52,657 bases of DNA, from assembly GCA_013203345.1 (NCBI GenBank), contig JABMQF010000032.1, positions 1 to 52,657 of the forward strand, written 5' to 3'. A program made the position numbers and the translations under genes. Shown here piece by piece: positions 35,668 to 52,509 of the stretch. Below the pieces are notes generated by a model, which had not been told where the DNA came from, made no database searches, and saw only the letters and a list, made by a program, of their open reading frames with translations. Numbering within the stretch: the stretch's first letter is position 1; every line of letters starts with the position of its first letter. This DNA is from Candidatus Woesearchaeota archaeon. GTDB lineage: Archaea; Nanobdellota; Nanobdellia; Woesearchaeales; UBA11576.

Positions 35668-36816
35668 ATGCAGCGACAAAGTAAAAAAAAAGAGGCGAAA
35701 CCGTTCACTTGCAGGATTTCTGAGCTTAAGCACGCTAAAGAATCTATTTCTAAATCAAAAACAGTCGCTGTTCTTGCTGCATCAGGACTAGGACGAACAT
35801 ATTTACTCAATAATATCTGCGACAACTCAAACTCTTTCTACATAGATCTAAGGAAATTAAGCCCAACACCCGAAAGCTTTTCTGTTGAGTTCATCGCTGC
35901 GCTCTGCAAAGATTCAGTACAACAACCATCAATTGATTATTTAAGCAAACTAAAACTTAGCAAAGAATGTAATGAAATCATAGCAACTGTAAAGAATGAA
36001 CTTGAAAAAATAAAACCTGACCAACAACTTCTACTTGATTCTGCGTTCAGGTTCGCACAGTCCTTCAAGATCAACGACAAAAAAACAATAATAGCAATAA
36101 ACAACTTTGAAGAACTTCTAAAGCTGAACAGTTTCTCAAAAATAAGTGATTCTATCGGAACTTTCTTCAGTCATGCCGATAAAGCAGGTTGTTCTTACAT
36201 AATTTCTTCCTCTGCTGTTCACTTAATGAAAACTGCTTTGAAGCAGTACAAGATCGACTCAATCAATCTCAAACCTCTGAAATTAGAAGCGGTCCATGAT
36301 CTGTTTGAAAGCATCGCAGGAAAAATTGACAAGAGAATATCAACCGAAGTCCTAAACATATCAGCAGGTCTGCCTATCGCAATAATCAGCATTGCCCAAA
36401 GATTCGCAAAAGAGAAATCAGAAGATGTGCAGCAAAACATCAGCCTGATTCATCACATCTTTGATTCTGAACTCGTCACAAAATACTCCAGACTGCATAG
36501 TTACTCAAGAAACCTGTTCACTGATTCCCTCAACAGAGCAAGAGGAGAATCACTTCTGAAAGCAATACTAAAAGTCGTATCACAAAACAGGCCAATGAGA
36601 CTTACAGAGATTGCACATTTGATATTCAGATCAGGTCCTGTTACCAAGAGTCTTATAGAACGGCTCGTCGAGGTTGACATGCTGGTCAAGACAGATAACA
36701 CATTTGATTTCGCCAATCCTGTTCTCAGGAGATGGTGCTATTTCATGTTCCGTAGTATTGAATTTGAAGAGACGCCTGAAGAGACAACATTATCTAAGAC
36801 AGGAGGACCACTATGA
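35668..36816 (+). CDS. Degenerate archaeal ATPase-fold protein with C-terminal wHTH (putative regulator)
   Basis: Walker A AASGLGRT, Walker B IIAINNFEE, SAGLP, RLTEIA...LIERLVEVDML, FANPVLRRW; ATGA overlap with next gene. Confidence 0.8.
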   Translation: MQRQSKKKEAKPFTCRISELKHAKESISKSKTVAVLAASGLGRTYLLNNICDNSNSFYIDLRKLSPTPESFSVEFIAALCKDSVQQPSIDYLSKLKLSKECNEIIATVKNELEKIKPDQQLLLDSAFRFAQSFKINDKKTIIAINNFEELLKLNSFSKISDSIGTFFSHADKAGCSYIISSSAVHLMKTALKQYKIDSINLKPLKLEAVHDLFESIAGKIDKRISTEVLNISAGLPIAIISIAQRFAKEKSEDVQQNISLIHHIFDSELVTKYSRLHSYSRNLFTDSLNRARGESLLKAILKVVSQNRPMRLTEIAHLIFRSGPVTKSLIERLVEVDMLVKTDNTFDFANPVLRRWCYFMFRSIEFEETPEETTLSKTGGPL

Positions 36817-38291
36817 GGAGCAATAATAACACTGAACAGAGAAGCATGAAAAATGCCGCTAAGATATTCATAGTACTTCTCCTTGCAGTGGTTCTCACAT
36901 CTGTCTTATCAACAATTGTACAAGCAGGTCCGTTTGATAGTTTGCGTACTGGTTGGAGCCAGATAAGATTCTTTGTGTTCAGTGCAGCATTCTGGATAAA
37001 CAGCTTGATTGTTTTCGGTGCTGCTTTCCTTGGATTCATTCTGTTACTAAAAGACAAGCTTGGCAGCGACAACACACAGAAAATAGTGATGTACATAATA
37101 ATAGGCATAGTCGCTTTGATTACAGCATCAAAGATTGTAGCAGATACTGGTCAGCCTGTTTATCTGTGGGAAAAAGAATCTTTTGCTGCAGGACTAAGGT
37201 TCCTGATTGGACCAAGTCCATCAATGGAATCTTGTCGTGCTGATGGACCTTCAATGTTCAGGTCATGGCTATCAATCGATCCCAATCCTCCATGCTGTGG
37301 TGCAGGCGCTTATTATACTGACATCCAGGGCGAACGCGTATGCCGCCAGGCTATATTCAGAACTAATGAACAAGGTACAGGTCTACCCGCATTCATTGCC
37401 GCTGGATTGTTGCTGTTCTTGCTGCTTCACATATCACGTGGCGCGCTTGGGCTTGAAGGTCTGGGTGACAGTGGAAGCAAATGGTTCACAATAATACTAT
37501 CAGGCTTCCTCGCGGCTTTAATAGCTCATCAGCGTGTGAGCCGTAGCGCAGTACTGATTGTTGCCGGCTGGATAGCAGTCTTTATGATAGGAAGAAAACT
37601 ATCAGGCACAATGGGTGAAGGTGATCCTCAAGGTCTGCGTCGTGGCTTTGCATTTGGTCTTGCTTTTGCTCTTGTCACGTTGATACTGAACATGCTCGGC
37701 ACATCATTGTTTGGAGCAGTAAGAGCATCAGGTGAAATAACACTCATGACAATAGGCATCAACATATTCTGGGGCATAATCATAGGATATATTTACGGAG
37801 CACTAGTCGGAGATGGCCTGTTAGGCACAATAATGCAAAGTATGGGTGAGGAAAAAAGAGCCAAGATTGAATCTCTGTGTGACCGTGCCAGAGATGATGG
37901 TAAGTTCAGAGACTATGGACGAGCTTTCCTTTCAGGACTGCCACTAATAGGTAGGTTTGTCGCGAAACCAGGCGCCACAAGAATCAGGAATACTAACCGA
38001 AGACGTGAAGACAGGATGGCAGAACAAATTGTTCATCTTGAAGAACAGTACAACAACGCAGTCACACAGGGAAGGCATGCTGACTCGTTAAGGATAGCTG
38101 AACAGCTAAACCGTTGGAAAGACTCTTACAGAAGATTACTAGCAGAAGGTGAAAGACCAGACGATGATGAACCTGGAACGCATCCAGGTGGAACAGATGA
38201 TGAATCTGAACCACATCCAGGTGGAACCGATGAAGAAAGACACCCACCTCCTCCACCAATAAGAGGATCCCCAGACCTACCACCATTATAG
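36813..38291 (+). CDS. Polytopic membrane protein with small Cys loop and acidic/Pro-rich tail
   Basis: About 9-10 hydrophobic segments; PPCCGAG loop; HPGGTD x2; SD GGAGG. Confidence 0.85.
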   Translation: MRSNNNTEQRSMKNAAKIFIVLLLAVVLTSVLSTIVQAGPFDSLRTGWSQIRFFVFSAAFWINSLIVFGAAFLGFILLLKDKLGSDNTQKIVMYIIIGIVALITASKIVADTGQPVYLWEKESFAAGLRFLIGPSPSMESCRADGPSMFRSWLSIDPNPPCCGAGAYYTDIQGERVCRQAIFRTNEQGTGLPAFIAAGLLLFLLLHISRGALGLEGLGDSGSKWFTIILSGFLAALIAHQRVSRSAVLIVAGWIAVFMIGRKLSGTMGEGDPQGLRRGFAFGLAFALVTLILNMLGTSLFGAVRASGEITLMTIGINIFWGIIIGYIYGALVGDGLLGTIMQSMGEEKRAKIESLCDRARDDGKFRDYGRAFLSGLPLIGRFVAKPGATRIRNTNRRREDRMAEQIVHLEEQYNNAVTQGRHADSLRIAEQLNRWKDSYRRLLAEGERPDDDEPGTHPGGTDDESEPHPGGTDEERHPPPPPIRGSPDLPPL

Positions 38292-38294
38292 ACA

Positions 38295-39944
38295 ATGAAC
38301 TCGAATAAAATTCAAGATTGGATGAAGAAAGCGTTGTTTGTAGTCGAGACTACGCAATCCATACTGGATTTGAGAAATGATCTAAGACACAAATTCGAGC
38401 AAAGCCCTGAAGGTATGGAGACTCGACAACTCGGAATCATATTATCTCACGTAAATAAACTGGAAAACTTTGAGCATTTCTTCTCTGAGCACTCAGGTCC
38501 TGACGGTCTTGGACAGCACTTAACTTATCTTAAGCAGAACCATATCAAGGCTGACAAAGGCATCCTGAAGATGATGGAAATAATCTCTGAAAAGATGCAG
38601 AATGGAAAACTTCCAAATTGGGAAAAGATAAATCATTTTGTAAAGCTTAAGCAGGAACTCAAGAAAAGACTTCGACTAAAACGCGATGTGCACGAATTTG
38701 TCAGAGAATTAGACTCTGCTCTTATGATGCTCTATCCAGAAAAGTATCCTAATGTACCGATAGTGAAAGAACTAAGAGAGCACAGCAAAAAGACAAAGAT
38801 GATCAGAAAGATTTGGCATTACGAGGCTGTTGTCAGTGCATGGAAGATTCTTTTCAAAAGATTTTACATGCCTTTCGATCCAAAACAATATAACCTGTCT
38901 GCTTTTGCGCATTCCATAGATGAAAATGTATGTATACGCGCAATAGCTCACGGATTGCACATGCAAGAGGATGAAATACGTGAAGAACTCAGAAAACTAT
39001 TCCCTTCAGCAAATTTCGAGAATAACAACCTGGAAAATGTGCAGTCATTTGTTAAATCAGCAAAAAAGAACAGTCTTGTAAAAATTCTGAACGAATTTGG
39101 TAAGGAGAAGAACGCAAAAGCATTCGTCAATCTTTTCAGTCACGGCGCTGCACGACCTGATGTTGCTATACAGATATACAATAAGTGGCTCAGCCCTCTT
39201 ATTAGTGAAGAAAAAAAGAAGAATATAGAACTTGAAGCTGTAAAAGAGTTTTATTCACTTATGAATGAGACAATAGACAGCTTTGAAAAACCAGTCTATG
39301 ATCTGAGTAAAAAACTCCAGTCAAAGATAAGCCGCAGGATAAAGACAGTCAAAATACGGCGCGCTAAAGATCTTTCAAAGACAGAAGAATTTACAGATGA
39401 ACTAATCAACAATGACAAGAAGTTACTCACTAGCATAACAGCAGGAACAAATTGTGTGAATGAAATACAAAAAAACAATGTAAAAAAATCAGAAGCATCT
39501 TCGAGATTGATTCTTTCAACTATGATAATCAATGCTAACGCAGCATTGAGTGAATACGAAATCAAAAACAATCAAGAAAATAAATTAGATGTAAACGAAC
39601 TCAATGTTAAGCTTCACAAGCTAATCAAAGAAGCAAAAGATCACGAACCCATGGCAATATCAACCTATTTCGAAAGGACTGTCCATTACATGCACTCTTT
39701 GACAATGCAGGGTAAGTCAAATGAACGTAATGATTTTGTCGCAAAAATGACTAAAGATGATACTCCTACAAAAGTTATCCAATCTGTCAATAAAGAAATC
39801 AAAAAGAAAGAATCAATTTTAGAAAGTGTTGCTGAAATGCTGAACCGTCTCACTAAACAGGGAAATGGTATTGCTCTTAAATCAGATAAGTTGAAAGAAG
39901 AGATAGTAAAAAACAAAGATAGAGGTACAAGACCACATGCATGA
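38295..39944 (+). CDS. Soluble alpha-helical hypothetical protein
   Basis: 549 aa, K/E-rich, no TM; coupled to both neighbours. Confidence 0.8.
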   Translation: MNSNKIQDWMKKALFVVETTQSILDLRNDLRHKFEQSPEGMETRQLGIILSHVNKLENFEHFFSEHSGPDGLGQHLTYLKQNHIKADKGILKMMEIISEKMQNGKLPNWEKINHFVKLKQELKKRLRLKRDVHEFVRELDSALMMLYPEKYPNVPIVKELREHSKKTKMIRKIWHYEAVVSAWKILFKRFYMPFDPKQYNLSAFAHSIDENVCIRAIAHGLHMQEDEIREELRKLFPSANFENNNLENVQSFVKSAKKNSLVKILNEFGKEKNAKAFVNLFSHGAARPDVAIQIYNKWLSPLISEEKKKNIELEAVKEFYSLMNETIDSFEKPVYDLSKKLQSKISRRIKTVKIRRAKDLSKTEEFTDELINNDKKLLTSITAGTNCVNEIQKNNVKKSEASSRLILSTMIINANAALSEYEIKNNQENKLDVNELNVKLHKLIKEAKDHEPMAISTYFERTVHYMHSLTMQGKSNERNDFVAKMTKDDTPTKVIQSVNKEIKKKESILESVAEMLNRLTKQGNGIALKSDKLKEEIVKNKDRGTRPHA

Positions 39945-42081
39945 TAAAATGATTACAGGAAAGAGAATATGCACTCTTCTGTTAATCATAGTTCTCGCTA
40001 TCCTCGTCACTGAACCTGTAATGGCAGGTGCTATTGGTGACAGTCTAAGGTCTGCAGGAAACAGCATAAATTCTTTCTTCAGTGAGTATGCATCTGATCC
40101 GAATCCTTCATTGATTGATTTCGTGATTTTCTCAGCGATATTCATCGCGCTTTGCTATATTGGTTTCAGCAAGGTATTCACTGACGCGAAGAACGCAGTG
40201 ACTGTGCTAAGTATTTCTGTCGGTCTGGCTTTGAGTATTGGTCTGGTATTTGGCGGCCAGATTACATTGAAGAAGCTTATGCCTTTTGCAGGAATAATTC
40301 TTTTCCTCATAATTATCGTATTGATCTATGCACTAATGAAGAGGTTTGTGTTTTCATCAGACACTGCAGGGAGTAAGATACTTTCTGCAGTGATAGCAAT
40401 AGTGGTTTCAATATTGATTCTGATTCTTGCATGGAACATGATTTGCGCTAATGAAAGATGTGAAGGCAATCCGTTCGCAAGGATTTCATTAGGTTCTAAT
40501 TCTATAATAGGTCGCATCATAGGAGGTTTTGATGACCTCACCGAATGGGGACCAGATCCAAGTCATGTCCCTCCAGGCAGGTACAGTCCAGGAGATATTG
40601 CCAGTTGCGGTGATGGTAGGATTGATTCGAATGAATTCTGTGATACAGGTCAAAGAGCAAATGTTTCTGAACAAGGTTGTAACGAAGATGAACGTTGTGA
40701 TAATTGTGCCAGGTGTATATCAAACTCAACAGCAGGAACAACACTTGATTTCTTAGGTGATAATTACTTGTGGATAATATTGATTGTCCTGTTCCTGATA
40801 GTTTTCAATGTTATCATGTTCAAAAATAAAACGATTCGCGACAACATGGATAAATGGTTGCGACGCAAACCTCACAAAAAAGAGATTGACGCAATGAACA
40901 GGTTGTTGGGAAAACTAGACAGGCACGAAAAACAAGTTAGTAATAACATTGCACAGCTTATTCAGAACATCAGATCAGAAAAACAGCCTATGGACTTATT
41001 CACAACAACAATTATTGATAATCTGACCAAGGATATCAAAGATACTATAGGCGGCACCATGCAGCAGGTGCAGGATGCAGAAAGAGCAGGATTAAATGAT
41101 AATATTAACACACTTAAGAACTTAAACCAAAGTGAGTCAAACATCTCTCGCAACATAATCGCAGATATCATGAGACAGGAGATAAGGGATATTGACAATG
41201 AAATAAGGGGTTACAGGCAAGTATATGATAAACTTAACCAAATAGAGAATGTGGCTCAGCATTTCGACGAGAATTCAAGGATAATGGAATCATTCGGCCA
41301 TTACAATTTCCGCGAGCAGGGAGTTATTGAAAAAATGAAGCAGGAGCTTACTGAAAACTCTGCTCAGTTCGATAATATCGCAAATATTTGTGATGGTATG
41401 CACACTTTGCTGGAAAAAGAGCAACACATTGTTAAGAATATAGCGAAAGGAAGAGATGTGGAAAATTATTCTTATGTTGTGAAAAAAATAAAGGAAATAA
41501 GAGGTTATACTCTCAAGCTGAAACAGCTTTTCGGCAGTAAAGTAACTCTATTGAGACATCTTGTAAGAAACATGGAGCATCTCAAGCAGGAAGTTGAAAC
41601 ACTTCATACTGTTGAGGTTGAGAGCATAAAGGGATTAAGAGATGGTGCTGTTCGTTCAAAAGATGCTGAGCTATTCGACCAGGCAGTCTATTTTGCGGCT
41701 CATGTCATAGAGAACGCACACTACCTAAACCATTGCCAGCTTGACGAACAATCAAGGTTGAATTTACAGACCTGGGAAAATGAAGCTAAAGATGTGTTAA
41801 GAGAATGCCTTCCAAAAGTGATAAAGTCCATAGCCCCGGGCGTTGTTGAAGATCTTTGGTATGGTACAGCCCTTCCAATAAAAAAATACAAAAGAGCAAA
41901 AGCGAGTTTGAAACATATTAAGACTATTGATTACATCAACGATGATGCAAAAAATGACCTACGCATTGAGTTCACAGAATACAGCAGACAAGTAAGCGCA
42001 TTGAACGAATATGTAGAAAGATGGGCAACTGCTGGCCGAATAAGAGACCAGATACTCAGGATATTAGGTTTAATACCTTAG
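39937..42081 (+). CDS. Membrane protein: TM block, DUF4215/myxobacterial-type Cys repeat, TM, helical cytoplasmic domain
   Basis: LIDFVIFSAIF block; CGDGRIDSNEFCD; YLWIILIVLFLIV; coiled C-terminus. Confidence 0.85.
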   Translation: MHDKMITGKRICTLLLIIVLAILVTEPVMAGAIGDSLRSAGNSINSFFSEYASDPNPSLIDFVIFSAIFIALCYIGFSKVFTDAKNAVTVLSISVGLALSIGLVFGGQITLKKLMPFAGIILFLIIIVLIYALMKRFVFSSDTAGSKILSAVIAIVVSILILILAWNMICANERCEGNPFARISLGSNSIIGRIIGGFDDLTEWGPDPSHVPPGRYSPGDIASCGDGRIDSNEFCDTGQRANVSEQGCNEDERCDNCARCISNSTAGTTLDFLGDNYLWIILIVLFLIVFNVIMFKNKTIRDNMDKWLRRKPHKKEIDAMNRLLGKLDRHEKQVSNNIAQLIQNIRSEKQPMDLFTTTIIDNLTKDIKDTIGGTMQQVQDAERAGLNDNINTLKNLNQSESNISRNIIADIMRQEIRDIDNEIRGYRQVYDKLNQIENVAQHFDENSRIMESFGHYNFREQGVIEKMKQELTENSAQFDNIANICDGMHTLLEKEQHIVKNIAKGRDVENYSYVVKKIKEIRGYTLKLKQLFGSKVTLLRHLVRNMEHLKQEVETLHTVEVESIKGLRDGAVRSKDAELFDQAVYFAAHVIENAHYLNHCQLDEQSRLNLQTWENEAKDVLRECLPKVIKSIAPGVVEDLWYGTALPIKKYKRAKASLKHIKTIDYINDDAKNDLRIEFTEYSRQVSALNEYVERWATAGRIRDQILRILGLIP

Positions 42082-42107
42082 GATATTAAGTTTAATCAGG
42101 TGTTATT

Positions 42108-43256
42108 ATGGCTGAAAAGAAAAAAATACTGACAGAAGATGAAAGACGTGAGGTGATAAAGCTCCTCAAGGATTATGAAAAAGAAATGAATAATCTAAAT
42201 AATTCTTTTGATAATCTCAAGAAACACGTCGATTTAAGTGATGATAAGAGTAATAGTTTTACTAAAAAAGGAAAAGAAGAACTTGAATCCACTGAGACTA
42301 AAGCTCAATTAGGCATAGCAAATTCTTTTGTCAATGATGCTCGCAATAACCCTAAAAAGAAAGAGATGTATCTGAAACAAGCAATTAAGATTCTAAAAAA
42401 CAAGCCCAACTCTTCAGAAGCAGATGAAAAAAAGAGTCTAATAACAGAACTAACTGCAAAGATGAACCAAGGCAAAGAAACGCCTGAAGAAAAAACAGAA
42501 CCAATCACTAAAAAAGAGTTTGATGAATGGATAAAAAACAATCCCTTTATCAACTCAACAGCAAAATTAGAAGATACATTATCCAATTTGCATGACGATG
42601 AGTCTTTTAATAATACAATAAAGGAAATTAACAGCACCCTATATAAAAGCCGTAGTGCGGCAAACCGTAATCAAGTTATTAGTTGGCTGATAGAAAAAAT
42701 TGATGAAAAGATTGAATATATAAAAAATATGGATAAGAGTCCCGACAACATACATCAGGAGACTTTGGGCAAGCTGGATAATTTCTACAAACATATCAAA
42801 ATGCAATTAGAGCAGCAGCGTGACGCAAGCAGTACTGAAACATCCACGACAGATACAACAACTGAACCAAAACAAAGACCTGAACCAATTTTAATAAAAG
42901 AACATGGTCCAGAAGAACTTGCAAATCTCGGATCTAACACTAAAGATAAAGACGATGTTGAAGCGTTAATCAACAGCAACGCGATAATCAATCCTAAAGC
43001 CAGCATCGCAGAGTCAAAAAATACATTTGCATCTGGTACTGAAAAATTTGAATTAAAAAAGAGTATGGAAGATTTTCTTCAGAAAAGTTCCACAGATAAT
43101 ACCATCAAACAAGTGAAAACACAAATTACCAATGCAATCTCAAGTAAAATTAAAAAATTAGAAAATGAAATGAAAACCGACAATTCTAAAGAACTCGAGA
43201 ACCTTATAGAATATCTCAAACAACAAAAAAAGTTTATCAATAAGTTCAAAGGATAA
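42108..43256 (+). CDS. Soluble charged helical hypothetical protein
   Basis: 382 aa, K/E/N-rich, Thr-rich linker. Confidence 0.75.
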   Translation: MAEKKKILTEDERREVIKLLKDYEKEMNNLNNSFDNLKKHVDLSDDKSNSFTKKGKEELESTETKAQLGIANSFVNDARNNPKKKEMYLKQAIKILKNKPNSSEADEKKSLITELTAKMNQGKETPEEKTEPITKKEFDEWIKNNPFINSTAKLEDTLSNLHDDESFNNTIKEINSTLYKSRSAANRNQVISWLIEKIDEKIEYIKNMDKSPDNIHQETLGKLDNFYKHIKMQLEQQRDASSTETSTTDTTTEPKQRPEPILIKEHGPEELANLGSNTKDKDDVEALINSNAIINPKASIAESKNTFASGTEKFELKKSMEDFLQKSSTDNTIKQVKTQITNAISSKIKKLENEMKTDNSKELENLIEYLKQQKKFINKFKG

Positions 43257-43260: not shown

Positions 43261-46200
43261 ATGATTACAAAAAACAAAGTAGGATTATATGGAGTGTTCT
43301 GGGTATTCATAGGAATAGTTGCAATCCTACAGTTCTCAAAAGGAATAAATGGAGTGGTTACTGGAACAGGCATCATTTCTGTAGGTTTAGTCATATTTTC
43401 TGTATTTGTTATTTTCATAAAACCTAAAGTAAGGATATTCAAGGAGCTTCTTGACATAAAAGAGGAAGAGTTTGATGCTGATGACTTAAGCAAATCATAT
43501 CAATCAATCAAACAGCATGGCAGCAAGACAATCAAAGCAGTCAAAGGAGTAAAAGAAAATATTCCTGACATCTCATCAAAGATTCGCCAAACATGTTCAA
43601 CATTAAAAACTAAACTGACTTCTAAACAAGCAAGAAAAGAGACTGTGGGAGAACAGATAAATGCTGTTGCGGAAGTAACACAAGAAGTTGAAAAAACTCT
43701 AGAAGAGCTTGCCGAAAGCACTGACCAAAGATCTGCCACGGGAAAGTTGCTTTCTGTACTTATCGGAGAACTCGAAGCAGAACATAAGGAAGTCGCTTCA
43801 AAAATAGAGGAATTGCAGGATAACAAAGAGGATTTCGGCAGGATAGAACAATTACTAAAAGATAATCTCGAAAGGTGCAGAAAAGTATTGACAAGTGAAG
43901 ACCTTGAAGTGAAAATAAGAGAACTCCATGGCGTAGAAGAGCTGATTGCCAGGGAGCGCGAAGAAAAGATTGATGATAAGCTTCAAAAAGAATTGATTGT
44001 TGCAGAACAGCAAAGTCATTATCTTAAGAAGTTGCAAAAACGCACCCATAGCACAATAAAACAACTACAGGCAGCAATACATCCTGACGGGAGAGATAAA
44101 AATTATCAGGAAATGCAGGCTCGTCTTGACAATATGGAGACTATTTCTGATTCTCTCGCTACTGTCGCAGAAGATCACGCCAAACTCGTGATGAATATAA
44201 TACAGAGTATGAGAAATGCTGATAGGCAGGTTCAGCAATTACACCTTCTCGAACTTCAACAGGAAAAAAATAAACACATAGGGCTTGCAGAAAACGCCAA
44301 ATTAAGAGTTATAGAAGCAGACAAAAAAGCAGAGGACTTCTCTAAAATATTGCGTTCATCACAGGCTGAAAATACTGAACTGAAAAAAAGAGTGGACGAA
44401 CTTTTCAGTAGTGTTGCCAGAGCAAACATGAATCTGAATGCTTGGAGAAAAGATCTGAAAACCGCTAAAGAAGCGATTAAAGGTGACAAAGATCTTGAAA
44501 CACTTCTCGCAAATCTCAACACCACTGATTCGAACAAGAAGATAGACCTCATAAACAGGCTTGTGAAAGCAGTTATTGCCAGTGACGAAAATGCGTCAAA
44601 CATGCTGGAAAGCAAGGCAGCTGCAGAAGCTCAGGTAAATGAACTCAATCGTAAGGTTGCGGCACTTAAAGAAGAGAAGAATAATACTGAGAATGCGCTT
44701 TCTGCGGCAAAAGAAGAAAATAAAGAGTTCAGAAGAAATATTATCAGAAAAGAGGAAATGATCTCTGAAATCAATCTTAACTTCAGTAAAGAAGTAGATG
44801 ACGAAACAAGGAAAAGATATGGGGAAGAACTCGAAAAACTAGGAAAAGAAAAACAGGAAATGCAGATTAAATTAAGAGAATCTACTAATGATTGCAGCAT
44901 ACGTGCAAAAGAGATTGAGGAAGTTAAGAGCAGTCTTGCAGCATCACAAGAAAAAGTAAAGGCTCTTGAGCCGCAATTGTCAGACCTAACACGAGAAACA
45001 AAAGATGCTTTGAAACAGAAAGATAATGTCCAGGCTGAACTCAAAAGGATACAAAAAGAGTTCGCTGACCAAAAAGATGATCTAACAAAAAAGATTTCTG
45101 AACTTGAAGAAAAGATTGTCGAAGAACGTAAAAGATTCAAAAAAGCTCAAGAAGAAAAAAATAGACTATCAGAACAAGCTGATAAATCGCATAAAGCTGT
45201 TCAGGAACAAGAAAATAGAACATCTCTTGCATGGGACGCGACAAAAAGATTGGAAGAACAGAAGAAAGAGCACATGCACGTGATATCCGAGATGCACAAA
45301 CTTGTTGAAAAAGAAAGAAAAAATAATGACAATCTGCACACAGCAATATCTGAAGCAAATATCGAATCGCGAAAAGCACTAAGACATCTTAACGGTCTTA
45401 AGCAGATATATGCCCAAGAGCTTAGTACAGGCCATTTACAAGCCGAAGAGTTGACAACAACTAATCTAGAATTCGAGAGAAATATACGAAATTTAGAAGA
45501 TAGTTTGATGACGCTAAAAGACAGAAAGCTCCAGCTTGAATCACTTCCCGAAGATAGGATAGATACTTCGACTGAAGATGAAATAAAGGATTTCATACAT
45601 GAAATAGCTGAACTAACAAAAGCTATCAAAGAGGATAAAAAAGATCTTGGAAAGAGCAAAGAGCTGGCAAGGTCGATGGAAGAAAGGGCAGAACATGCTG
45701 AAGAAAGAATCAATATTATAGAAGAAGAAAGATTGCAGGTATTCCAGGATCTAGAATCATCTAACGCAGAACTTGAGAACCTACGAAAAAATAATGAAGC
45801 AGATACTGCAAGACACCACGAAGAGGTTGACAAGCTTCAAGGAAAAATATTAGAGCTTGAAGCAAACATAGAAAATATTCAAGAAAGTATCAAAAATGCA
45901 AGCTCTGTGATTGATAATGCAGAAGAGATTGAACATCGTGAACAAGAACTCGCAGAACTTATCGATGAATACAAAGAACTCATAAGCAAAAGGACTCAAG
46001 TGCAGGAACTAACAGTAAGAAGGGTTCACGCTCTGCGAAAAATACAAACAGACTATCAGAATAATGTGAAAGAGACAGAGCAGCTCAGTGAGGAAAAAGC
46101 AATTCTTGAGAGCGAACTGGAAGAAGCAAAACGTAGGGAAAATAATCTACTTAATGAAAATAAAAGACTCATCGATGAGGAAAACGTAATAAAAACTATT

Positions 46201-47868
46201 GAGCTAGTGCCTAAAGAACTTGAAGAATTAAAAGAAAAGCTGAGAACAACTGAAGAAGAACTCAAGAATACTCAAGCAAGCAGGGGACAGCTCAAAGAAG
46301 TTATTAATGCTGCAGCAGAACGAATTCATCAGCTTGAGTCAACACAGCAAGTATTAAAACCAATCATAGATGTTGATATTACATCAAAAACAGCGGATAT
46401 GAGACAAAAAGTTGAAGAAGAACTTCAAATAAGCATAAACACAAAGATTACATTAGAGGTGCTTGATAGAGTTATCAGATTAAAAGATACCAATCCCTCC
46501 AAGACAATTGAATTGATTGATGACTCACTACCACACATGATGCAATTTGATAAGAATGTTAACATGCATGAAGAGGAAAAATCAATTCTCACAAATACTA
46601 TTTCTAGATTGCAGGAAATCAAATCAGTTCTAGAGACAAGTATTGCGATGGCTCATCCAATCGTTGCAAAACCGATTGTGATAGCAATAGGTGATGTACA
46701 TGGTGATTGGAAAAAATTAAAAGAAGTGATGAACAAAGCAGGCGTACTTGAAGGCGATAGGTGGAGCGCACCAAAAGGAACAAAGGTTGTTCTACTTGGA
46801 GATTACATAGACAGAGGTGAAGAGACCTTTGAAGTGCTCTACCAGCTCATGAAACTCAAACAAAAAGCAGGGGAACAGCTAGTCATGCTCATCGGAAACC
46901 ACGAGGCTATGTTCCTCGGAGCATTCGACTGGGAAGGTTTTGATAAACCAAAGATATTTGAGAGTTATTTAGCAGAGGAACAAAGCTTTGAGCAAAACAC
47001 CAATGGAGAAGAAGATGCAGTCAGGCAATGGAATTTCAACAACACGACTCATAAATTCAGGCAACTTTATCTGAGGCTTAGAAAGTTGAAGATCAGCTGG
47101 TTAGGCAATGAGTTGATAAAAAATAAGAACACAGGCCTTCCTTTGTATAATGAGCAGGGTGAAGTGCAAAGCCATGTGTTGAACTCCCTGGGATTAAACT
47201 TCAATGATTTGCTGAAAGATTCGCGCCTTATCTTCAAAACATCCTACAAGGATATCCCTATGAAAAAATATATTGAGTTCCTAAGAAAAAACCTTGTAAG
47301 TCATTATATGGATGATAACTACAAAGTCCTCTTTGTTCATGCAGGAATTCCATTCCATGCAGATAACATGGAAGATCTAAGTGACAATCCGCTTATTAGA
47401 ACACCTGGCGATTTCGTGAATAGGCAAGAGCTGAACAAGCTACTGGCAGATCTGGATAATAGAATCAAAAAGAAGGATATAAACTTCATGATAACCGCCA
47501 CAGAGCTTTCACCACTTACTGCAGCCGAACCAGTCAAAAGGTCGTATGAATGGTACGATATCTACAAAAAGTATTGGAAAAAGAGTTCGGAAGAGAACGA
47601 AGCAAGGATAAGCAGTTTGATATCAGATTCATTGAAATTCTCTGCTGTTGTTCATGGACACTCGCGACACAGACCAAATGAAGACAATCTGCAATCCTGG
47701 TATACCCACAATAACAGGATAAGAAGAGAATACAATATTGATTTCGGCATGTCCAAAGGATATAAAACAAGCCCTGGCGGATGGCTTGTGTTAAACAACA
47801 ATAAAACAATAGATGTAAACATCATAACTGATACAGATGTCAATAAGTACACTTACAAACTAGAATGA
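43261..47868 (+). CDS. Membrane-anchored long coiled-coil protein with C-terminal PPP-family (Shewanella-like) metallophosphatase
   Basis: 2 N-terminal TMs; ~1000-aa heptad-rich stalk; GDVHG, LGDYIDRG, GNHE, VHAG, HGHS, IDFGMS. Confidence 0.9.
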   Translation: MITKNKVGLYGVFWVFIGIVAILQFSKGINGVVTGTGIISVGLVIFSVFVIFIKPKVRIFKELLDIKEEEFDADDLSKSYQSIKQHGSKTIKAVKGVKENIPDISSKIRQTCSTLKTKLTSKQARKETVGEQINAVAEVTQEVEKTLEELAESTDQRSATGKLLSVLIGELEAEHKEVASKIEELQDNKEDFGRIEQLLKDNLERCRKVLTSEDLEVKIRELHGVEELIAREREEKIDDKLQKELIVAEQQSHYLKKLQKRTHSTIKQLQAAIHPDGRDKNYQEMQARLDNMETISDSLATVAEDHAKLVMNIIQSMRNADRQVQQLHLLELQQEKNKHIGLAENAKLRVIEADKKAEDFSKILRSSQAENTELKKRVDELFSSVARANMNLNAWRKDLKTAKEAIKGDKDLETLLANLNTTDSNKKIDLINRLVKAVIASDENASNMLESKAAAEAQVNELNRKVAALKEEKNNTENALSAAKEENKEFRRNIIRKEEMISEINLNFSKEVDDETRKRYGEELEKLGKEKQEMQIKLRESTNDCSIRAKEIEEVKSSLAASQEKVKALEPQLSDLTRETKDALKQKDNVQAELKRIQKEFADQKDDLTKKISELEEKIVEERKRFKKAQEEKNRLSEQADKSHKAVQEQENRTSLAWDATKRLEEQKKEHMHVISEMHKLVEKERKNNDNLHTAISEANIESRKALRHLNGLKQIYAQELSTGHLQAEELTTTNLEFERNIRNLEDSLMTLKDRKLQLESLPEDRIDTSTEDEIKDFIHEIAELTKAIKEDKKDLGKSKELARSMEERAEHAEERINIIEEERLQVFQDLESSNAELENLRKNNEADTARHHEEVDKLQGKILELEANIENIQESIKNASSVIDNAEEIEHREQELAELIDEYKELISKRTQVQELTVRRVHALRKIQTDYQNNVKETEQLSEEKAILESELEEAKRRENNLLNENKRLIDEENVIKTIELVPKELEELKEKLRTTEEELKNTQASRGQLKEVINAAAERIHQLESTQQVLKPIIDVDITSKTADMRQKVEEELQISINTKITLEVLDRVIRLKDTNPSKTIELIDDSLPHMMQFDKNVNMHEEEKSILTNTISRLQEIKSVLETSIAMAHPIVAKPIVIAIGDVHGDWKKLKEVMNKAGVLEGDRWSAPKGTKVVLLGDYIDRGEETFEVLYQLMKLKQKAGEQLVMLIGNHEAMFLGAFDWEGFDKPKIFESYLAEEQSFEQNTNGEEDAVRQWNFNNTTHKFRQLYLRLRKLKISWLGNELIKNKNTGLPLYNEQGEVQSHVLNSLGLNFNDLLKDSRLIFKTSYKDIPMKKYIEFLRKNLVSHYMDDNYKVLFVHAGIPFHADNMEDLSDNPLIRTPGDFVNRQELNKLLADLDNRIKKKDINFMITATELSPLTAAEPVKRSYEWYDIYKKYWKKSSEENEARISSLISDSLKFSAVVHGHSRHRPNEDNLQSWYTHNNRIRREYNIDFGMSKGYKTSPGGWLVLNNNKTIDVNIITDTDVNKYTYKLE

Positions 47869-48013
47869 AATCAATCCAAACAAATTCAAAATACACTATT
47901 GATATATAAACAATTTATAAAAAAAACAAAAACATTATAAACCCAAAATACCCAATCAAGACCCAGGAATTATAAAAGACTGGCGTAAACATAATAAAAG
48001 AAAGAGGAATCTC

Positions 48014-50371
48014 ATGGAAAAGAGACAATTTTTAGCCCTGTTTATTGCAGTAACACTATTATTTTTGCTACTGACAGGCTGTGCAGGAATTACTAGAATA
48101 GATAATTTCTTTGAAAACAAGGAATATCTCGATCATAGCAAGATTATAGATTTCGCTCTTTTCTTTATTATTTTCTTTGCACTTACTTACACTGGACTTA
48201 GTAGAGTCTGGGGTGAAGGTTTTGGCAAACCAGGTGATGCAAAAGGACCTATTGTAGGGATATCTCTGGCATTAGGAATTACTCTCGCTTTCGCCATAAT
48301 ATCCCAGACTAGATTCTCTATTACAACAATGTTCCCTATTGCCAAGGCTATGTTATTCCTCTTGATATGGTTCGTGATATGGGGATTGTTTATTGCTTCA
48401 AAAATTTTCGGAGAACACTGGGGTGGCAAAGCTATCGCCGCTATTCTTGCGTTAATCGCTTGCTATTTGATTTTCAGTATTGCAACTTTCTTTATCTGCG
48501 AGATGGAGTCAAACCAGGATGATCCTGCTTGTGAATCTGGATTCTTTAGTGGTGGTGCCCAATTATTACAAAAACTGATTAGATCATTAACACCTGACCC
48601 ATCTCCAGATCCTACGCCTGGACCAACACCAGGACCAACACCCACACCAGAATGTAGAGCAATCTCAGACTGTCCTGCTAATCATAATTGTATTGGGGGT
48701 AAATGTGAAGAACTACTCGAACCTGCTCCTCCTTGTACAACAACAGCTGATTGCTTTGCAGGTCAAATTTGTATAAGTGGTTCTTGCTTTGTCAGGAATT
48801 GTGATAGCAGTTCAGATTGTTCAGATGGTAAAACTTGCAAGGATGGTCAATGTTTAGATAGGGAATGTAATTCTATCTCAGACTGTCCTGCTAACAATAA
48901 TTGTATTGATGGTAATTGTGAAGAACTACTTCAGCCAAGACCTACTTGTACAACAACAGCTGACTGCTTTGCAGGTCAGATATGTATAAGCGGTACTTGT
49001 TTTGTCAAAGAATGTGATAGCAGTTCAGATTGTTCAGGTGGTAAGACTTGCAATAATGGTCAGTGTATAACTCCTGAGTGTACAAGCAATTCTGACTGCG
49101 GAACAAATGAAGCCTGCACAAATGGTGCGTGCGTCGCTATAGAATGTTCAAGTAATTCTGACTGCGGAACAAATGAGATCTGCAGGAATAATGAGTGTAT
49201 AACTCCAACAATCTGTACAGGTCTTCCGGGTAGCTGCCCAGACGGTCAGGTTTGCAGGAATAATGCTTGCGTACCAAGCCCATCAAGCTGTAGAAGCTAT
49301 GCTGACTGCGGCACAGGCATGGAGTGTAGAGCAGGAGTATGCGTTGCTTCAACAAGTTGTAATATGGATAGTGATTGCCTTCTTGAAAGAGTCTGTAGGG
49401 ATAATCGCTGTGTAGAACCTTATGATGCTCCTAATGATCCACAATCAGGAAATCAAGACCAGGAAGGATCTGGTGAAGAAGAAAATGAAGAAGGTGGAGG
49501 AATCCCCTGGTGGGTATGGATCATTATTGGAGTGATCGTACTTATTCTGCTAGGTCTGCTAGGAGTATCTGTTGTAGCAACTGGTTTTGTAGGTCACAGA
49601 GTTGGGTATCACCAATGGAAGAAGTGGAAGCATGGTGAAGACCTCTCTATTATGGATGATAGGATACTCGAACTTATAGTAAAAGCCATGGAAATGCTCG
49701 AAGCTTTGAACAATGACATAGGTAACAGAGAACATACTAATGATGAAAAAAGCCTTTGGAAAAGAGCAATGCAAAGCAAATCGCCCCGTCTGCGCAAGAG
49801 CATTGAGAAATATCTCGGTGGAGCAGGGTATGACAATATAACCTACGCTCCTAATCTTAACCCTCCTACTGCTGGCGGTCCAAGCAGAAAGAAGTTCCTT
49901 GACAGGGTTGAGTCCTGTGCACACACAATTAGAGAAACTCATAGTCTTTTGAACAACCGTCTGTTGAATTTCTTCTGGCCTAAGCTAAAGAGAATCAAAA
50001 AAATTGAAGACAGACTTATGAAGACTGCTGTATCACCTATAGTTCACTTTGACAAAAAAGTCACTTTCATGTATAAAGCACCACCAAGAACAACAAATAT
50101 CACAGAAGTGAAAGTTAATTATCAAAAGCCTGATGGAAGCGTCAAAACAGAGACATTGTTCAATGTGAACCCCAATATAAATGTCTGGAAATTCAAGACA
50201 TCTGACCCTCTTGTTGACGGCGCTTACAAATACAAATACTTAGTCACTCAAGGTGGAGTAGTTACTCAGCTAAAAGATTCGCTTAACAACATGTCACCAC
50301 CAGGAACTACCCAATGGAGTTTGCTGACAGTCAAGGATCCAGAGAGAGATCCAGCAGGACCAAGGCCTTAA
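48014..50371 (+). CDS. Membrane protein: TM block, Pro/Thr linker, 11 four-Cys modules, TM, cytoplasmic domain ending in a CBM48/E-set-like fold
   Basis: LLTGC; IIDFALFFIIF block; C-x5-C-x5-C-x4-C repeats; WWVWIIIG TM; VTFMY...W...DGAYKYKYLV. Confidence 0.85.
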   Translation: MEKRQFLALFIAVTLLFLLLTGCAGITRIDNFFENKEYLDHSKIIDFALFFIIFFALTYTGLSRVWGEGFGKPGDAKGPIVGISLALGITLAFAIISQTRFSITTMFPIAKAMLFLLIWFVIWGLFIASKIFGEHWGGKAIAAILALIACYLIFSIATFFICEMESNQDDPACESGFFSGGAQLLQKLIRSLTPDPSPDPTPGPTPGPTPTPECRAISDCPANHNCIGGKCEELLEPAPPCTTTADCFAGQICISGSCFVRNCDSSSDCSDGKTCKDGQCLDRECNSISDCPANNNCIDGNCEELLQPRPTCTTTADCFAGQICISGTCFVKECDSSSDCSGGKTCNNGQCITPECTSNSDCGTNEACTNGACVAIECSSNSDCGTNEICRNNECITPTICTGLPGSCPDGQVCRNNACVPSPSSCRSYADCGTGMECRAGVCVASTSCNMDSDCLLERVCRDNRCVEPYDAPNDPQSGNQDQEGSGEEENEEGGGIPWWVWIIIGVIVLILLGLLGVSVVATGFVGHRVGYHQWKKWKHGEDLSIMDDRILELIVKAMEMLEALNNDIGNREHTNDEKSLWKRAMQSKSPRLRKSIEKYLGGAGYDNITYAPNLNPPTAGGPSRKKFLDRVESCAHTIRETHSLLNNRLLNFFWPKLKRIKKIEDRLMKTAVSPIVHFDKKVTFMYKAPPRTTNITEVKVNYQKPDGSVKTETLFNVNPNINVWKFKTSDPLVDGAYKYKYLVTQGGVVTQLKDSLNNMSPPGTTQWSLLTVKDPERDPAGPRP
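48650..49075 (+). repeat. 213-bp (71-aa) intragenic tandem duplication
   Basis: Units start at 48650 and 48863 and share long identical stretches (ATCTCAGACTGTCCTGCTAA; TGTACAACAACAGCTGA; TGTGATAGCAGTTCAGATTGTTCAG). Confidence 0.85.
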
Positions 50372-50372
50372 A

Positions 50373-51422
50373 ATGGAAATTCAGACAAGCCATACAGCAG
50401 AAGAAAGGAGAAAGCGCATTCTTGAGCGTATGGACATGGTTAAAACATTTTTCGAAGATGGTGATATAAGCGGAGCTTTAACAACATTAGGTGGAGTAAA
50501 AGAAGAGTATATCAAGATTAAGGAAGACACTGCTGTTGACCCTGCAGAAAAAATAAACATTGAAACTGCAGAAAAAAACGCTGACCAACAGATTGCGGCT
50601 TCAAAAAAAGCATTCAAAGAAGACGAGGCAATGCACAAACTGCTGGCTGGAAAGACAGTAAGCATAGAACAATTGATTTCTTTGGTTAATTACTTTAGCA
50701 TAGATCCTGAGAACGACAAATGGCTTTCTGAAAGACTTTCATTCAAGCGCTTGGTATATAAGAAAAAAGGTTACAAGATACTCAAGTTCCGCTCAAAGGA
50801 CGACCAGGGCCAGATTCAGCTTGATGGTTTTGTTCATGTGCAGTCATTGGAGAAAGAGATTGACAAAGGTTGGATCCCTGTTGATGAGAAAACAATAGAA
50901 CGCATACTTGCAAAAGAGACTGCGCAGGAAATGAACAACATTGAGAAAGGAATGACCGAGACTCCACAAAAATTAATTGGTCTTATTCAGAACCTTCGGG
51001 ATCAGAAGATACAGCCAGAAATGATAAAAAAGAAGATCTTAGATACAAAACCTAAGATAAAAATGGGAGAGCATACAGCAAATATAAACTATTACATGGA
51101 GATCAACAACCATCCTGTGATACATATTGAAGGCTTCCCTGCTTCTGTATGGCTGAAACTGGAAGAACGAGCAATAGGGACTGCGGTCAGTATCCTACAC
51201 TTACTCGAACCTCTGTCAGGCAAACTAGGTAATATCAAACCATTTGGAGCTCACACCATTGAAGAAGCAATGGATCTTCGTGACCATGACATCAAAGAAC
51301 TTAGTTTCTGGAAGGAAAAAGAACCTGAAAACAACATAACAATTGAGGAAATAAACGCCTTGATATTCATGAAAAAAGGCAGGGGCGTTGTACGAAATAA
51401 AAAACCCGCCAAACCAGAATGA
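50373..51422 (+). CDS. Soluble hypothetical protein
   Basis: 349 aa, 1 nt after the previous stop. Confidence 0.8.
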   Translation: MEIQTSHTAEERRKRILERMDMVKTFFEDGDISGALTTLGGVKEEYIKIKEDTAVDPAEKINIETAEKNADQQIAASKKAFKEDEAMHKLLAGKTVSIEQLISLVNYFSIDPENDKWLSERLSFKRLVYKKKGYKILKFRSKDDQGQIQLDGFVHVQSLEKEIDKGWIPVDEKTIERILAKETAQEMNNIEKGMTETPQKLIGLIQNLRDQKIQPEMIKKKILDTKPKIKMGEHTANINYYMEINNHPVIHIEGFPASVWLKLEERAIGTAVSILHLLEPLSGKLGNIKPFGAHTIEEAMDLRDHDIKELSFWKEKEPENNITIEEINALIFMKKGRGVVRNKKPAKPE

Positions 51423-51546
51423 TACAGATAATAACCATTTAAGAATAACAAAAATTTTATATACTCACCAACTCAACTCCCTTCGAAAAGAGGCACTACT
51501 GCTTCTATAAATCATAATAAAAAAGAAAACTCATGAGGTGTTTTAT

Positions 51547-52509
51547 ATGGAAGAAAAAGATTTTAAGAAACTTATTGAACTCATTAAAAAACTCGCTCAC
51601 AAATGTCACTTAGCAGCATTGAAAGGTGTTGCAGACCTTGAGACAATACGCAGCATAACCACAACAAAAGAAATAAAATATTCACAACAAGAACTAGAAC
51701 ATGCTGAAAAAGACATGAAAGATCTTGAAGATGCAATTGAAAAACACCTAATCGCAAAAGCACAGCACTACGAAATTGATATTCTAAGAAATATTGTCCG
51801 CAGCATTAAGAACCTATACCTTAGTGGATTCAATATTACCATTTTTGAAAGAATCGCATTAAAAGATCTAAATAATTTTGTCAATGACTCTGTAAGAAAA
51901 ATTAAAAACGAAGAATATAGGCGAGCAATTAATGATGTAATCAGCAATATTATTGAAGAATGGACTGATAATCTCAGGACAATTCACGAGGGAGCCAACG
52001 CAGTCCTTAGCTCAGCAAAGGGCAGAACAACTATAACGCTAAAACTAACAGAAGCAATCCACGTTAGAGGACCAAGCATCATCAAAAGAATACAGGAGCA
52101 ACACCTAATCAAAGAAGGTCATAGAGATACCAAGAAAGCAAATGCTATTATGAATGAAATCATTAAAACGCGAAATTTAGATAAAAATAAAGCATTCGAA
52201 AAACTTAAAAGTCTAAAAACCACTGAAATTGAAGGAATTAAAGATTACACAAAAGCAATTAAACTGCTCGATACAGACTGGCAAAATGATTTAAAGGAAT
52301 TCAATGATTTGGTAGAAAAGACAAACAAAGCTGTTGAAAAACATGAAATACCTCAAAGAGACGCTGAACAAATAAAGGAATTACAAACAATATTGGTAAA
52401 CAATTTTGTTGAGCCGTTCTTACATAGCATAAATGAAAGCGTTAACCAATTAAATTCCATAAAAAAACAAGTTGAATCAAAAGCAGCACAACTCAAAAAA
52501 GCAGCCTAA
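51547..52509 (+). CDS. Soluble alpha-helical hypothetical protein
   Basis: SD GAGGTG upstream of ATG 51547 (ORF from GTG 51538); T-rich tract after the stop. Confidence 0.8.
   Translation: MEEKDFKKLIELIKKLAHKCHLAALKGVADLETIRSITTTKEIKYSQQELEHAEKDMKDLEDAIEKHLIAKAQHYEIDILRNIVRSIKNLYLSGFNITIFERIALKDLNNFVNDSVRKIKNEEYRRAINDVISNIIEEWTDNLRTIHEGANAVLSSAKGRTTITLKLTEAIHVRGPSIIKRIQEQHLIKEGHRDTKKANAIMNEIIKTRNLDKNKAFEKLKSLKTTEIEGIKDYTKAIKLLDTDWQNDLKEFNDLVEKTNKAVEKHEIPQRDAEQIKELQTILVNNFVEPFLHSINESVNQLNSIKKQVESKAAQLKKAA

Follow-up and report, generated by a model that had tools for sequence, protein, structure and literature searches.

The window described here comprises positions 1 to 52,657 of contig JABMQF010000032.1 from a Candidatus Woesearchaeota archaeon (assembly GCA_013203345.1), whose source genome, G000, is a 1.69-Mb metagenome-assembled genome that is 89% complete. 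Nine plus-strand open reading frames (ORFs), named g1 to g9, occupy positions 35668-52509, exactly where a preliminary description made from the letters of the window had placed a cluster of receptor-like membrane proteins with soluble partners (Table 1). They encode proteins of 382, 492, 549, 714, 382, 1535, 785, 349 and 323 amino acids (aa), and successive genes are spaced by -4, +3, -8, +26, +4, +145, +1 and +115 nucleotides (nt), which indicates that most of the nine are coupled. A Kyte-Doolittle scan placed transmembrane (TM) segments in g2, g4, g6 and g7 and none in g1, g3, g5, g8 and g9, so that both the run of nine co-oriented, mostly coupled genes and the broad alternation of membrane and soluble proteins were borne out. 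The cluster is built almost wholly from undescribed parts; those known by test are a PPP-family phosphatase domain, DUF7107 and, in relatives, FHA and OmpA-like domains.

Table 1 Features of the g1-g9 cluster, with positions in the window.
Feature	Position	Strand	Description
g1	35668..36816	+	382-aa soluble P-loop protein with degenerate Walker A (GLGRT); always the first gene of the cluster
g2	36813..38291	+	492-aa polytopic membrane protein (hydropathy scan); comes straight after g1 in relatives
g3	38295..39944	+	549-aa soluble, predicted helical protein
g4	39937..42081	+	714-aa TM-block receptor-like protein
g4 TM block	40111..40446	+	aa 59-170, four TM helices
g4 juxtamembrane helical domain	40828..41631	+	aa 298-565, homologous to g6 aa 53-336 by profile alignment
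g5	42108..43256	+	382-aa K/E-rich low-complexity soluble protein
g6	43261..47868	+	1535 aa; two N-terminal TM helices, long low-Pro/Gly stretch, C-terminal PPP phosphatase
g6 phosphatase domain	46669..47868	+	aa 1137-1535, PPP-family Ser/Thr, bacterial-like Shelph/RLPH-type
g7	48014..50371	+	785-aa second TM-block protein
g7 cytoplasmic tail	49577..50371	+	two helical segments and a C-terminal beta-rich part; predicted g8 docking site
g8	50373..51422	+	349-aa soluble protein, predicted g7-tail partner
g9	51538..52509	+	323-aa soluble helical protein, GTG start, last gene before the contig end

The proteins encoded by g4 and g7 follow a common plan: a signal peptide, four TM helices, an I-C motif, a Pro-rich linker, a Cys-rich ectodomain, a further TM helix (WII...) and a cytoplasmic domain. 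The preliminary description had proposed this single architecture for the genes starting at 39937 and 48014, and the shared four-helix part, here called the TM block, is significantly similar between the two, both by BLASTP (42.7 bits, E 4e-8, 28% identity over 143 aa) and by hhalign of the ortholog profiles (probability 99.9%, E 3e-31). On these alignments g4 and g7 are paralogous, and both are founded on a conserved four-helix membrane block. Two cysteines stand right after TM4 in both proteins (C170 and C175 in g4), and the ectodomains contain eight cysteines in g4 (170-260) and 45 in g7 (163-502). The TM block of g7 spans aa 44-162 and is followed by the Pro linker, an ectodomain of ~340 aa, a TM helix at 503-521 and a 264-aa tail; the LTGC of its signal peptide appears lipobox-like. 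The g7 ectodomain matched the Pfam family DUF7107 (PF23416) in seven stretches (78.7 bits against a gathering score of 24.6, E 4.1e-22), as well as Dumpy_DPY (E 1.7e-12) and EB (E 5.4e-5).

Four residues of the TM block are invariant in 24 sequences (D61, F65, L99 and P116 in g4 numbering), and D61, F62, F65, F69, P116 and A154 are at least 90% conserved in 111 sequences. An AlphaFold2 model of g4 residues 1-300 based on these 111 sequences reached pLDDT 90-98 in the four helices (mean 80); the whole-g4 model, with a mean pLDDT of 71, has an all-helical cytoplasmic part. Pfam holds no family for the TM block. Foldseek searches with the 1-300 model returned no match at E ≤ 0.001 against either the PDB or the viral database BFVD, and the full g4 model recovered generic helical bundles from the PDB, none at E ≤ 0.001. 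VIA wide with g4 1-300 gave a best Z of 6.1 over a 49-residue hairpin and no chain at Z ≥ 8, its rows lying mainly at residues 114-187 and barely covering the ectodomain. The predicted model thus has no convincing known-fold match. The ESM Atlas contained no usable match for g4 or g3, and a homologous-protein search with g4 returned itself and one relative of 40% identity.

Among 1.84 billion cluster representatives the TM block had 414 matches at E ≤ 1e-3 and 136 at E ≤ 1e-10; it is invariably N-terminal, and the proteins that carry it are 93-1903 aa long. At E ≤ 1e-5 it was found in 56 of the 301 sampled genomes of the order and in 50/401 genomes of a phylum-wide sample, 10 of these from other orders of the class (the samples include the unpublished genomes G223 and G515). 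A third, weak TM-block match was observed in the source genome (G000:C87:32530-32967, plus strand, E 7.4e-10), in a frame that runs off the contig end; an ORF-based hmmsearch did not recover it. In another family of the order, a 1691-aa protein (L051:4737-9812, minus strand) carries the TM block N-terminally and could have arisen by fusion of such a block to a giant helical protein.

The cluster is conserved as a set. The order g1-g2-g3-g4-(g5)-g6-g7 was kept in all ten relatives fetched, with identities of 19-27% for g3, 22-31% for g6 and 31-40% for g4. With g4 as query, matches were obtained in 17/17 other genomes of the same family (a tally that includes the unpublished G004) and in two of 23 single-genome samples of other families. 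When used to probe genome contigs, g1 detected 25 loci; where at least 5 kb of downstream sequence was available, a TM-block gene was present in it at 16 of 18 g1-anchored loci (8/10 for loci outside the genus), and in three further families (G113, G056, G120) g1/g2 are followed by two TM-block genes. The comparisons support g1-g9 as a conserved, modular, envelope-associated unit with synteny across the genus, the family and parts of the order, and this much of the preliminary description, which had proposed a modular envelope apparatus of a symbiotic archaeon for host recognition, attachment or effector delivery, stood.

Comparison of the orthologs revealed that the outer domains and cytoplasmic tails of g4 and g7 have been exchanged between species. 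Mean conservation differs by part: identities to the window protein were 56% in the block, 30% in the ectodomain and 22-27% in the cytoplasmic parts for g4, and 59%, 12% (ectodomain) and 14% (tail) for g7. The g7 ectodomains range from 105 to 341 aa with 2-45 cysteines and the tails from 234 to 689 aa (the ortholog in L011 was mis-segmented by the scan). Of ten g7 orthologs, seven matched an OmpA-like domain around residues 243-337 (E 2.4e-7 to 4.7e-4), and two of the seven carry DUF7107 in addition. Among 58 distant TM-block proteins, Pfam identified OmpA in three, CarboxypepD_reg in three, SLT in two (E 1.9e-20) and SdrD_B, SpaA and TPR_2 in one each; the remainder had no match. Three loci (L016, L035 and L045) encode the TM block and the helical cytoplasmic part in two genes that stand side by side. 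The TM-block family is real, and its ecto- and cytoplasmic domains are shuffled. In three relatives of the genus, an OmpA-type g7 is followed by an ORF of ~200 aa and then by a 620-870-aa protease with a papain-family (Peptidase_C1) domain (L012:16180-18792, L013:16392-18773, L017:16777-18639); the window contig ends before the position of such a gene.

The preliminary description had assigned three kinds of C-terminus to the TM-block proteins, namely a helical bundle, a PPP phosphatase and a CBM48-like fold. The first agrees with the AlphaFold2 model of g4, and the second is real but belongs to g6, which lacks a TM block. The CBM48-like fold was not confirmed for the window protein: its 113-aa C-terminus matched no Pfam family even at E 10, and a PDB profile search with the g7 tail returned unrelated helical noise only. 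Three g7 orthologs gave sub-threshold matches to beta-sandwich families at their C-termini, namely CBM_48 (E 0.0036), Big_13 (E 2.8e-4) and X25 (E 0.036); the CBM_48 match, in the G016 ortholog, scored 18 bits against a cut-off of 22.4.

The tail type of the window g7 occurs only in L018, L016, L015 and, weakly, L046, the loci that also carry g8, which is present in four of the ten fetched relatives plus L046. Tail type and g8 were both present in five loci and both absent in six, although these loci are kin, and the co-occurrence is a pattern, not a statistic. Structure prediction of the g7 tail with g8 gave an ipSAE of 0.66 against 0.21 for the best of three controls, with at least 78% contact agreement between runs and a partner pLDDT of at least 79. 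In calibration the ipSAE mark was reached by 58 of 80 solved complexes and by 2/110 mismatched pairs, which holds only roughly here, the prediction having used its own shallow alignments of five rows. The predicted interface joins two helical segments of the tail to the N-terminal helices of g8 (aa 10-117). Binding of g8 by the g7 tail is thus supported by prediction only, and it is for this membrane-soluble pair that modelling of adjacent proteins, together with co-occurrence, favoured partnership. A g8-like gene also adjoins a TM-block gene in another family (L052).

The largest protein of the cluster, g6, has two N-terminal TM helices (aa 7-53) followed by residues 55-1100, which are almost free of Pro and Gly and rich in E, K, R and Q. 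This stretch probably forms a coiled coil, which if continuous would extend roughly 150 nm (0.148 nm per residue); an NCBIfam scan returned coiled-coil noise of the SMC/Rad50 type, and one g6 ortholog matched the Pfam crescentin rod family Rod_CreS at E 1.1e-5. The C-terminus matched Metallophos (PF00149; aa 1140-1238, 48.0 bits against a gathering score of 21.5, E 2.6e-12). PPP phosphatases are marked by the signature GDxHG, GDxxDRG and GNH[E/D] with downstream metal-binding His residues, and the corresponding motifs are intact in g6 (GDVHG 1144, GDYIDRG 1180, GNHE 1212, HAG 1360, HGH 1465). On these motifs, the g6 C-terminus is a real PPP-family phosphatase domain whose predicted active-site signature is complete. 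Its nearest PDB relatives are the Shelph/RLPH2-type enzymes, a Shewanella cold-active phosphatase (2zbm/1v73, E 1.5e-10) and RLPH2 (5vjv, E 1.9e-7), with PP2A and PP1 at ~1e-4. The g6 domain shares all motifs with these enzymes but forms the last 400 residues of a membrane-anchored 1535-aa protein, whereas they are free-standing and ~300-340 aa long.

Orthologs of g6 (1610-1910 aa) were present in 10/10 fetched relatives, and the C-terminal domain alternates among them. In the set of 11 whole proteins, Metallophos was detected in five and FHA in five. When C-terminal segments were considered, FHA was clear in G002, G010, G003, G001 and G009 (E 1e-11 to 8e-15) and Metallophos in G005, G011, G012 and G016; the G016 protein (L015) carries a weak FHA match in addition (E 3.6e-4), and neither domain was found in that of G007. 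Matches to Yop-YscD_cpl in g6 relatives overlap the FHA domain and lie below the cut-off. No FHA domain (PF00498) was found in the window g6 or anywhere in G000 at its 89% completeness, and a query with the g6 phosphatase found no g6-type PPP domain elsewhere in the five FHA-type genomes. The alternation of PPP and FHA among sister species ties the system to phospho-Ser/Thr signalling, in favour of which seven Pkinase matches above cut-off in G000 also speak. As far as our searches show, the exchange of an FHA domain for a phosphatase on a giant membrane-anchored coiled coil is undescribed in archaea.

Profile alignment also related g6 to g4: g6 aa 53-336 aligned with g4 aa 298-565 at 97.8% (E 1.2e-12, 249 columns), and a g4 query matched the G016 g6 ortholog at E 1.1e-8 (4.8e-7 by BLASTP). 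In an hhalign comparison of all 36 gene pairs, only g4-g7, g4-g6, g2-g4, g2-g7 (38%) and g6-g7 (21%) exceeded 10%.

The preliminary description had also seen a weaker version of the TM block in g2, the gene at 36813. Besides a signal peptide, this protein has several TM helices, a small, conserved, Cys-containing outer loop (PNPPCCG..GAY...C.QA) and, on the cytoplasmic side, a helix with a tail rich in Pro; W119, G133, G165, Y167, Q179 and G188-A193 are invariant in the alignment. It matched no Pfam or PDB family, a PDB profile search giving noise only. Its similarity to g4 by BLASTP (E 0.006) covers the signal peptide and TM1, the best value against g7 was E 0.42, and hhalign gave 89% over ~100 columns with a pooled block profile and 38% with g7 alone. 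The invariant Asp of the TM block is absent. A relationship is possible, extending at most to the signal peptide and the first two helices, and the claim is weakly supported.

At the head of the cluster, g1 is its best-kept gene, sharing 48-55% identity with homologues of the genus and 30-35% with those of other families. Pfam matches were weak (AAA_19, nSTAND1 and Bac_DnaA at E 0.03-0.07; PF01637 gave no score), and a profile search of the PDB ranked 2qen_A, a 'Walker-type ATPase', best (E 1.4e-4, confined to residues 17-66 of the P-loop region). The archaeal ATPase_2 proteins (PF01637; 2qen) are of the same size with an N-terminal P-loop, but the match stops at those 50 residues and the Walker A Lys is Arg in most members. 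A strongly conserved, helix-rich C-terminal segment (RLTEIA...RSGPVTKSL.ERL) looks like a winged helix. A g1 homologue of 31% identity was also noted in L043, a 7953-bp contig titled Omnitrophica bacterium, which could be a mis-binned archaeal contig or a transfer.

Of the remaining soluble proteins, g3 evolves fast, with an identity of only 19-27% within the genus; no family was found for it in Pfam, NCBIfam or PADLOC, a PDB profile search giving coiled-coil noise only. The position of g5 is kept while its sequence is nearly unalignable, with a single BLAST relative (27% over 126 aa); seven relatives of the genus have a 346-428-aa gene there with 20-29% K+E, and relatives whose g4 is ~200 residues longer (920 and 962 aa) lack the gene. 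A g4-g5 fusion as Rosetta-stone evidence was considered for aa 709-920 of the G003 g4 and dropped as too weak (27 bits with a profile of the g5-position genes, bias 23, in a three-sequence database). Orthologs of g9 have 24-29% identity in L011, L014, L018 and L020, with a weak match in L051, and g9 matched no family in Pfam, NCBIfam or PADLOC. The poor conservation of g5 and g9 and the lack of a recognisable family for most members would suit a chance assembly of neighbours without common function, in which the TM block is a generic membrane anchor. This is hardly credible, since gene order is kept down to ~20-30% identity, genes overlap at their start and stop codons, the g7 tail varies together with g8 and is predicted to bind it, and the TM block undergoes fission from and fusion with the helical domain.

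The chromosomal setting of the cluster bears on a second alternative. In 17 related loci the gene for ribosomal protein eL33 stands beside g1, in some of them on the same strand, a sign that the chromosomal site is fixed. The cluster is set apart from a group of defence genes further upstream in the window by a tRNA, a hydrolase, a cytidylyltransferase and eL33; with the fixed flank, these ordinary genes mark the cluster as a vertically inherited chromosomal locus outside the defence island. An anti-virus defence system, with g1 as a STAND-like NTPase and the membrane proteins as effectors, was suggested by the upstream genes (type I restriction-modification, UvrD with DUF2779, ATPase_2-DUF234-Mrr, PIN and GIY-YIG/DUF4357), by weak matches of g1 to nSTAND1 (E 0.05) and AbiEii (E 0.0093) and by the weak match of the g4 tail to the ZorA tail (E 6e-4). 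We consider this very improbable: the AbiEii and ZorA-tail matches were the only ones of the nine proteins in PADLOC-DB 2.0 and formed no convincing system model, the genes named above separate the cluster from the defence genes, and presence at the same site in 17/17 family genomes is unlike patchy mobile defence islands. A provirus or mobile element was likewise discarded as an explanation; the eL33-side flank is fixed and no viral fold was matched.

A membrane-rich cluster in a probable symbiont could also be an effector-delivery or secretion apparatus aimed at a host, and the ~200-aa ORF and papain-family protease that follow the OmpA-type g7 in three relatives could be its secreted cargo. 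The preliminary description had recognised no secretion or pilus genes, and scans of the nine proteins against Pfam, NCBIfam and PADLOC agreed: they detected no secretion ATPase, secretin, pilin, prepilin peptidase, needle or translocon family. The Walker A of g1 is degenerate, no small signal-less effector genes were recognised, and no protease neighbour appears before the window contig ends. An effector-delivery apparatus is quite improbable, and this part of the proposal found no support: no ATPase motor, secretin, needle, pilin-like part or effector-like gene was found.

More generally, scans against Pfam, NCBIfam and PADLOC convincingly placed the cluster in no known secretion, pilus, defence or stator sequence family. 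Several regulatory circuits resemble it in logic. Type VI secretion is under threonine-phosphorylation control through TagQRST-PpkA-PppA-Fha1, in which PppA is a PPM-type and not a PPP-type phosphatase, and the archaellum is controlled by the archaeal ArnA/ArnB-kinase-PP2A system. As may hold for the g6 set, envelope sensors, an FHA protein and a Ser/Thr phosphatase switch a surface structure in these systems, an analogy limited by the fact that their proteins are not homologous to g2-g5 or g7-g9 by any search made here and that the g1-g9 operon holds no kinase gene. In the eukaryotic STRIPAK-PP2A complex, SLMAP combines an FHA domain, a long coiled coil and a membrane anchor. A similar logic may apply to g6, a membrane-anchored coiled coil with an FHA domain bringing a PPP phosphatase to phosphorylated targets, but SLMAP is tail-anchored and recruits a separate PP2A, whereas g6 is N-terminally anchored with FHA or PPP fused and alternating between species; the likeness is one of arrangement and no homology is claimed.

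The stator units MotAB, TolQR-Pal and ZorAB share with the TM-block proteins a multi-helix unit, an invariant acidic residue, an OmpA-like domain (in relatives) and a long helical tail. The TM block differs in being four tightly packed helices without a cytoplasmic loop domain, and its Asp stands at the outer end of TM1 of a polytopic protein, not in a single-pass partner. No MotA_ExbB match was obtained in the nine proteins with Pfam at E ≤ 0.1, and the PADLOC match to ZorA covers positions 392-527, in the tail and not in the membrane domain. The TM-block model matched TolQ chains at E 2.3-3.7 with TM-scores of 0.11-0.13 in Foldseek, and VIA wide lists no stator chain.

We tentatively read g1-g9 as a lineage-specific, vertically inherited trans-envelope receptor or scaffold complex with a phospho-Ser/Thr output, and put its chance of being right a little short of even. 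The ectodomains of g7 and g4, which are Cys-rich repeats here and OmpA-like or SLT domains elsewhere, would contact an external polymer or surface; the OmpA-like and SLT domains of relatives point to peptidoglycan. The cytoplasmic tails would bring in matching helical adaptors, namely g8 and, by analogy, g3, g5 and g9, and g4 would pair with g6 through their common juxtamembrane helical domain. Through its coiled coil, g6 could position a phosphatase or phospho-reader up to ~150 nm from its membrane anchor, so that surface contact would be converted into altered Ser/Thr phosphorylation of substrates. With its degenerate P-loop and putative winged helix, g1 may act as a nucleotide-dependent switch or as a regulator of the set. 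Host recognition or attachment is a plausible purpose, the sole pointer being the OmpA-like and SLT domains that relatives carry on the same block.

Several observations weigh against this receptor complex. Of the seven OmpA-like matches one exceeds the Pfam gathering score (31.4 bits against 27.2) and six fall below it, and the window g7 itself has no OmpA (PF00691) match in Pfam at E ≤ 0.1. The g7-g8 interface was modelled from alignments of five rows, and the similarity of g4 and g6 sits in helical, charge-rich sequence and could be partly compositional. Arg replaces Lys in the Walker A motif of the window g1 and in 7/10 aligned sequences, which makes ATPase activity doubtful. The operon contains no kinase gene, and in the relatives inspected the 10 kb before g1 contain no homologue of the kinase gene that lies 5 kb upstream here. 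The link with FHA and PPP was seen in one family, small profile hidden Markov models finding neither domain beside TM-block genes at ten loci of other families, and the TM block matched in only 56 of the 301 sampled genomes of the order. The read runs listed for the stretch are four of DNA, all of one freshwater study; none is of RNA.

A structural envelope or cytoskeleton system of the cell itself, acting in shape, division or anchoring of the S-layer or wall, would account for part of the same data. TM-block proteins would then anchor a surface layer, g6 would serve as a filament or ruler tethered to the membrane, as coiled-coil proteins of the bacterial cytoskeleton do, and FHA and PPP would regulate assembly, much as FHA proteins and phosphatases regulate actinobacterial division. 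Presence in 17/17 family genomes at a fixed site by a ribosomal protein gene fits such a housekeeping role, as do the Rod_CreS match of a g6 ortholog (E 1.1e-5) and the near absence of Pro and Gly from g6 residues 55-1100. Against this, the swapping of ectodomains and tails and the fast divergence within one genus are unusual for a core structural machine, the TM block occurs in only 56/301 genomes of the order, and OmpA-like and SLT domains target peptidoglycan; we know of no archaeon that makes this polymer. On balance a structural role in the cell's own envelope appears rather unlikely.

A bolder reading makes the cluster the core of a cell-contact organ specific to DPANN archaea, which we regard as unlikely. 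The rapidly exchanged ectodomains (Cys-rich repeats, OmpA-like domains and lytic transglycosylases) would then hold on to, or breach, the wall of a partner cell that may be a bacterium, and the coiled coil of ~150 nm tipped with FHA or PPP would relay contact and switch attachment or cytoplasmic exchange. If so, the TM block would represent a new membrane fold and a genomic marker of host-interaction loci across Nanoarchaeia. Woesearchaeota are abundant and, to our knowledge, uncultured. Surface proteins with domains directed at the bacterial wall were found in these lineages and proposed to serve attachment to bacterial hosts, and some Woesearchaeota and Pacearchaeota were suggested to attach to bacteria (2021, PMC8204110). 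That study concerns the same lineages and theme, and the SLT domain in 2/58 distant TM-block proteins is in line with it; it treats one protein family, not an operon or a TM block, and the window proteins themselves have no SLT or OmpA match. The peptidoglycan-directed domains on the TM block of relatives nevertheless echo that suggestion, and they bear on the question raised there of whether some DPANN archaea live on bacteria.

For the receptor complex with a phospho-Ser/Thr output, the operon offers a concrete candidate machine in which g7 and g8 form a predicted receptor-adaptor pair, the phosphatase can be assayed and the ectodomains have relatives with peptidoglycan-directed domains. The exchange of FHA and PPP marks phospho-Ser/Thr signalling as the variable to measure, and the TM block, which has neither a Pfam family nor a convincing PDB fold, could serve as a search handle for similar loci. 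A literature search, with supplementary tables outside its reach, found no description of the operon or the TM block, and DUF7107 appeared in no paper.

Further features were noted in the rest of the window and its genome. No archaeal small subunit rRNA was recovered from the assembly. The ribosomal protein eL33 (L35Ae) is encoded by an 88-aa ORF at 34756-35022 on the minus strand (E 8e-22 against archaeal ribosome chains), which suits a DPANN archaeon of Woesearchaeota type. Between it and g1, positions 35040-35667 form a long non-coding stretch without an Rfam match, containing a C/A-rich low-complexity tract at ~35090-35160, a G6/C6 hairpin at 35578-35590 and TATA-like elements at 35606-35613 and 35632-35637; a scan for sigma-70 promoters and terminators, whose models do not apply to archaea, gave results at chance level. 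An Rfam scan of the window at gathering thresholds returned the tRNA only (31281-31401, minus strand, 59.4 bits), which at 121 nt is long enough for an intron and is not reported by ARAGORN. A 366-aa Ser/Thr protein kinase (29685-30785, minus strand) and a separate 244-aa metallophosphoesterase (26383-27117, plus strand) are encoded 5-9 kb upstream of g1. The defence-like island spans 7760-25648 and includes ATPase_2-DUF234-Mrr (7760-9193, minus strand), a UvrD-type helicase (11984-14581) with a DUF2779 protein (14847-16295), the type I restriction-modification genes R, S and M (18649-24812) and a GIY-YIG/DUF4357 protein (24809-25648); a PIN gene also lies upstream of the cluster. At its start the window encodes a B12-binding radical SAM protein (129-2372) and an M16 peptidase-like pair (2709-5386, minus strand), which are unrelated to the cluster.

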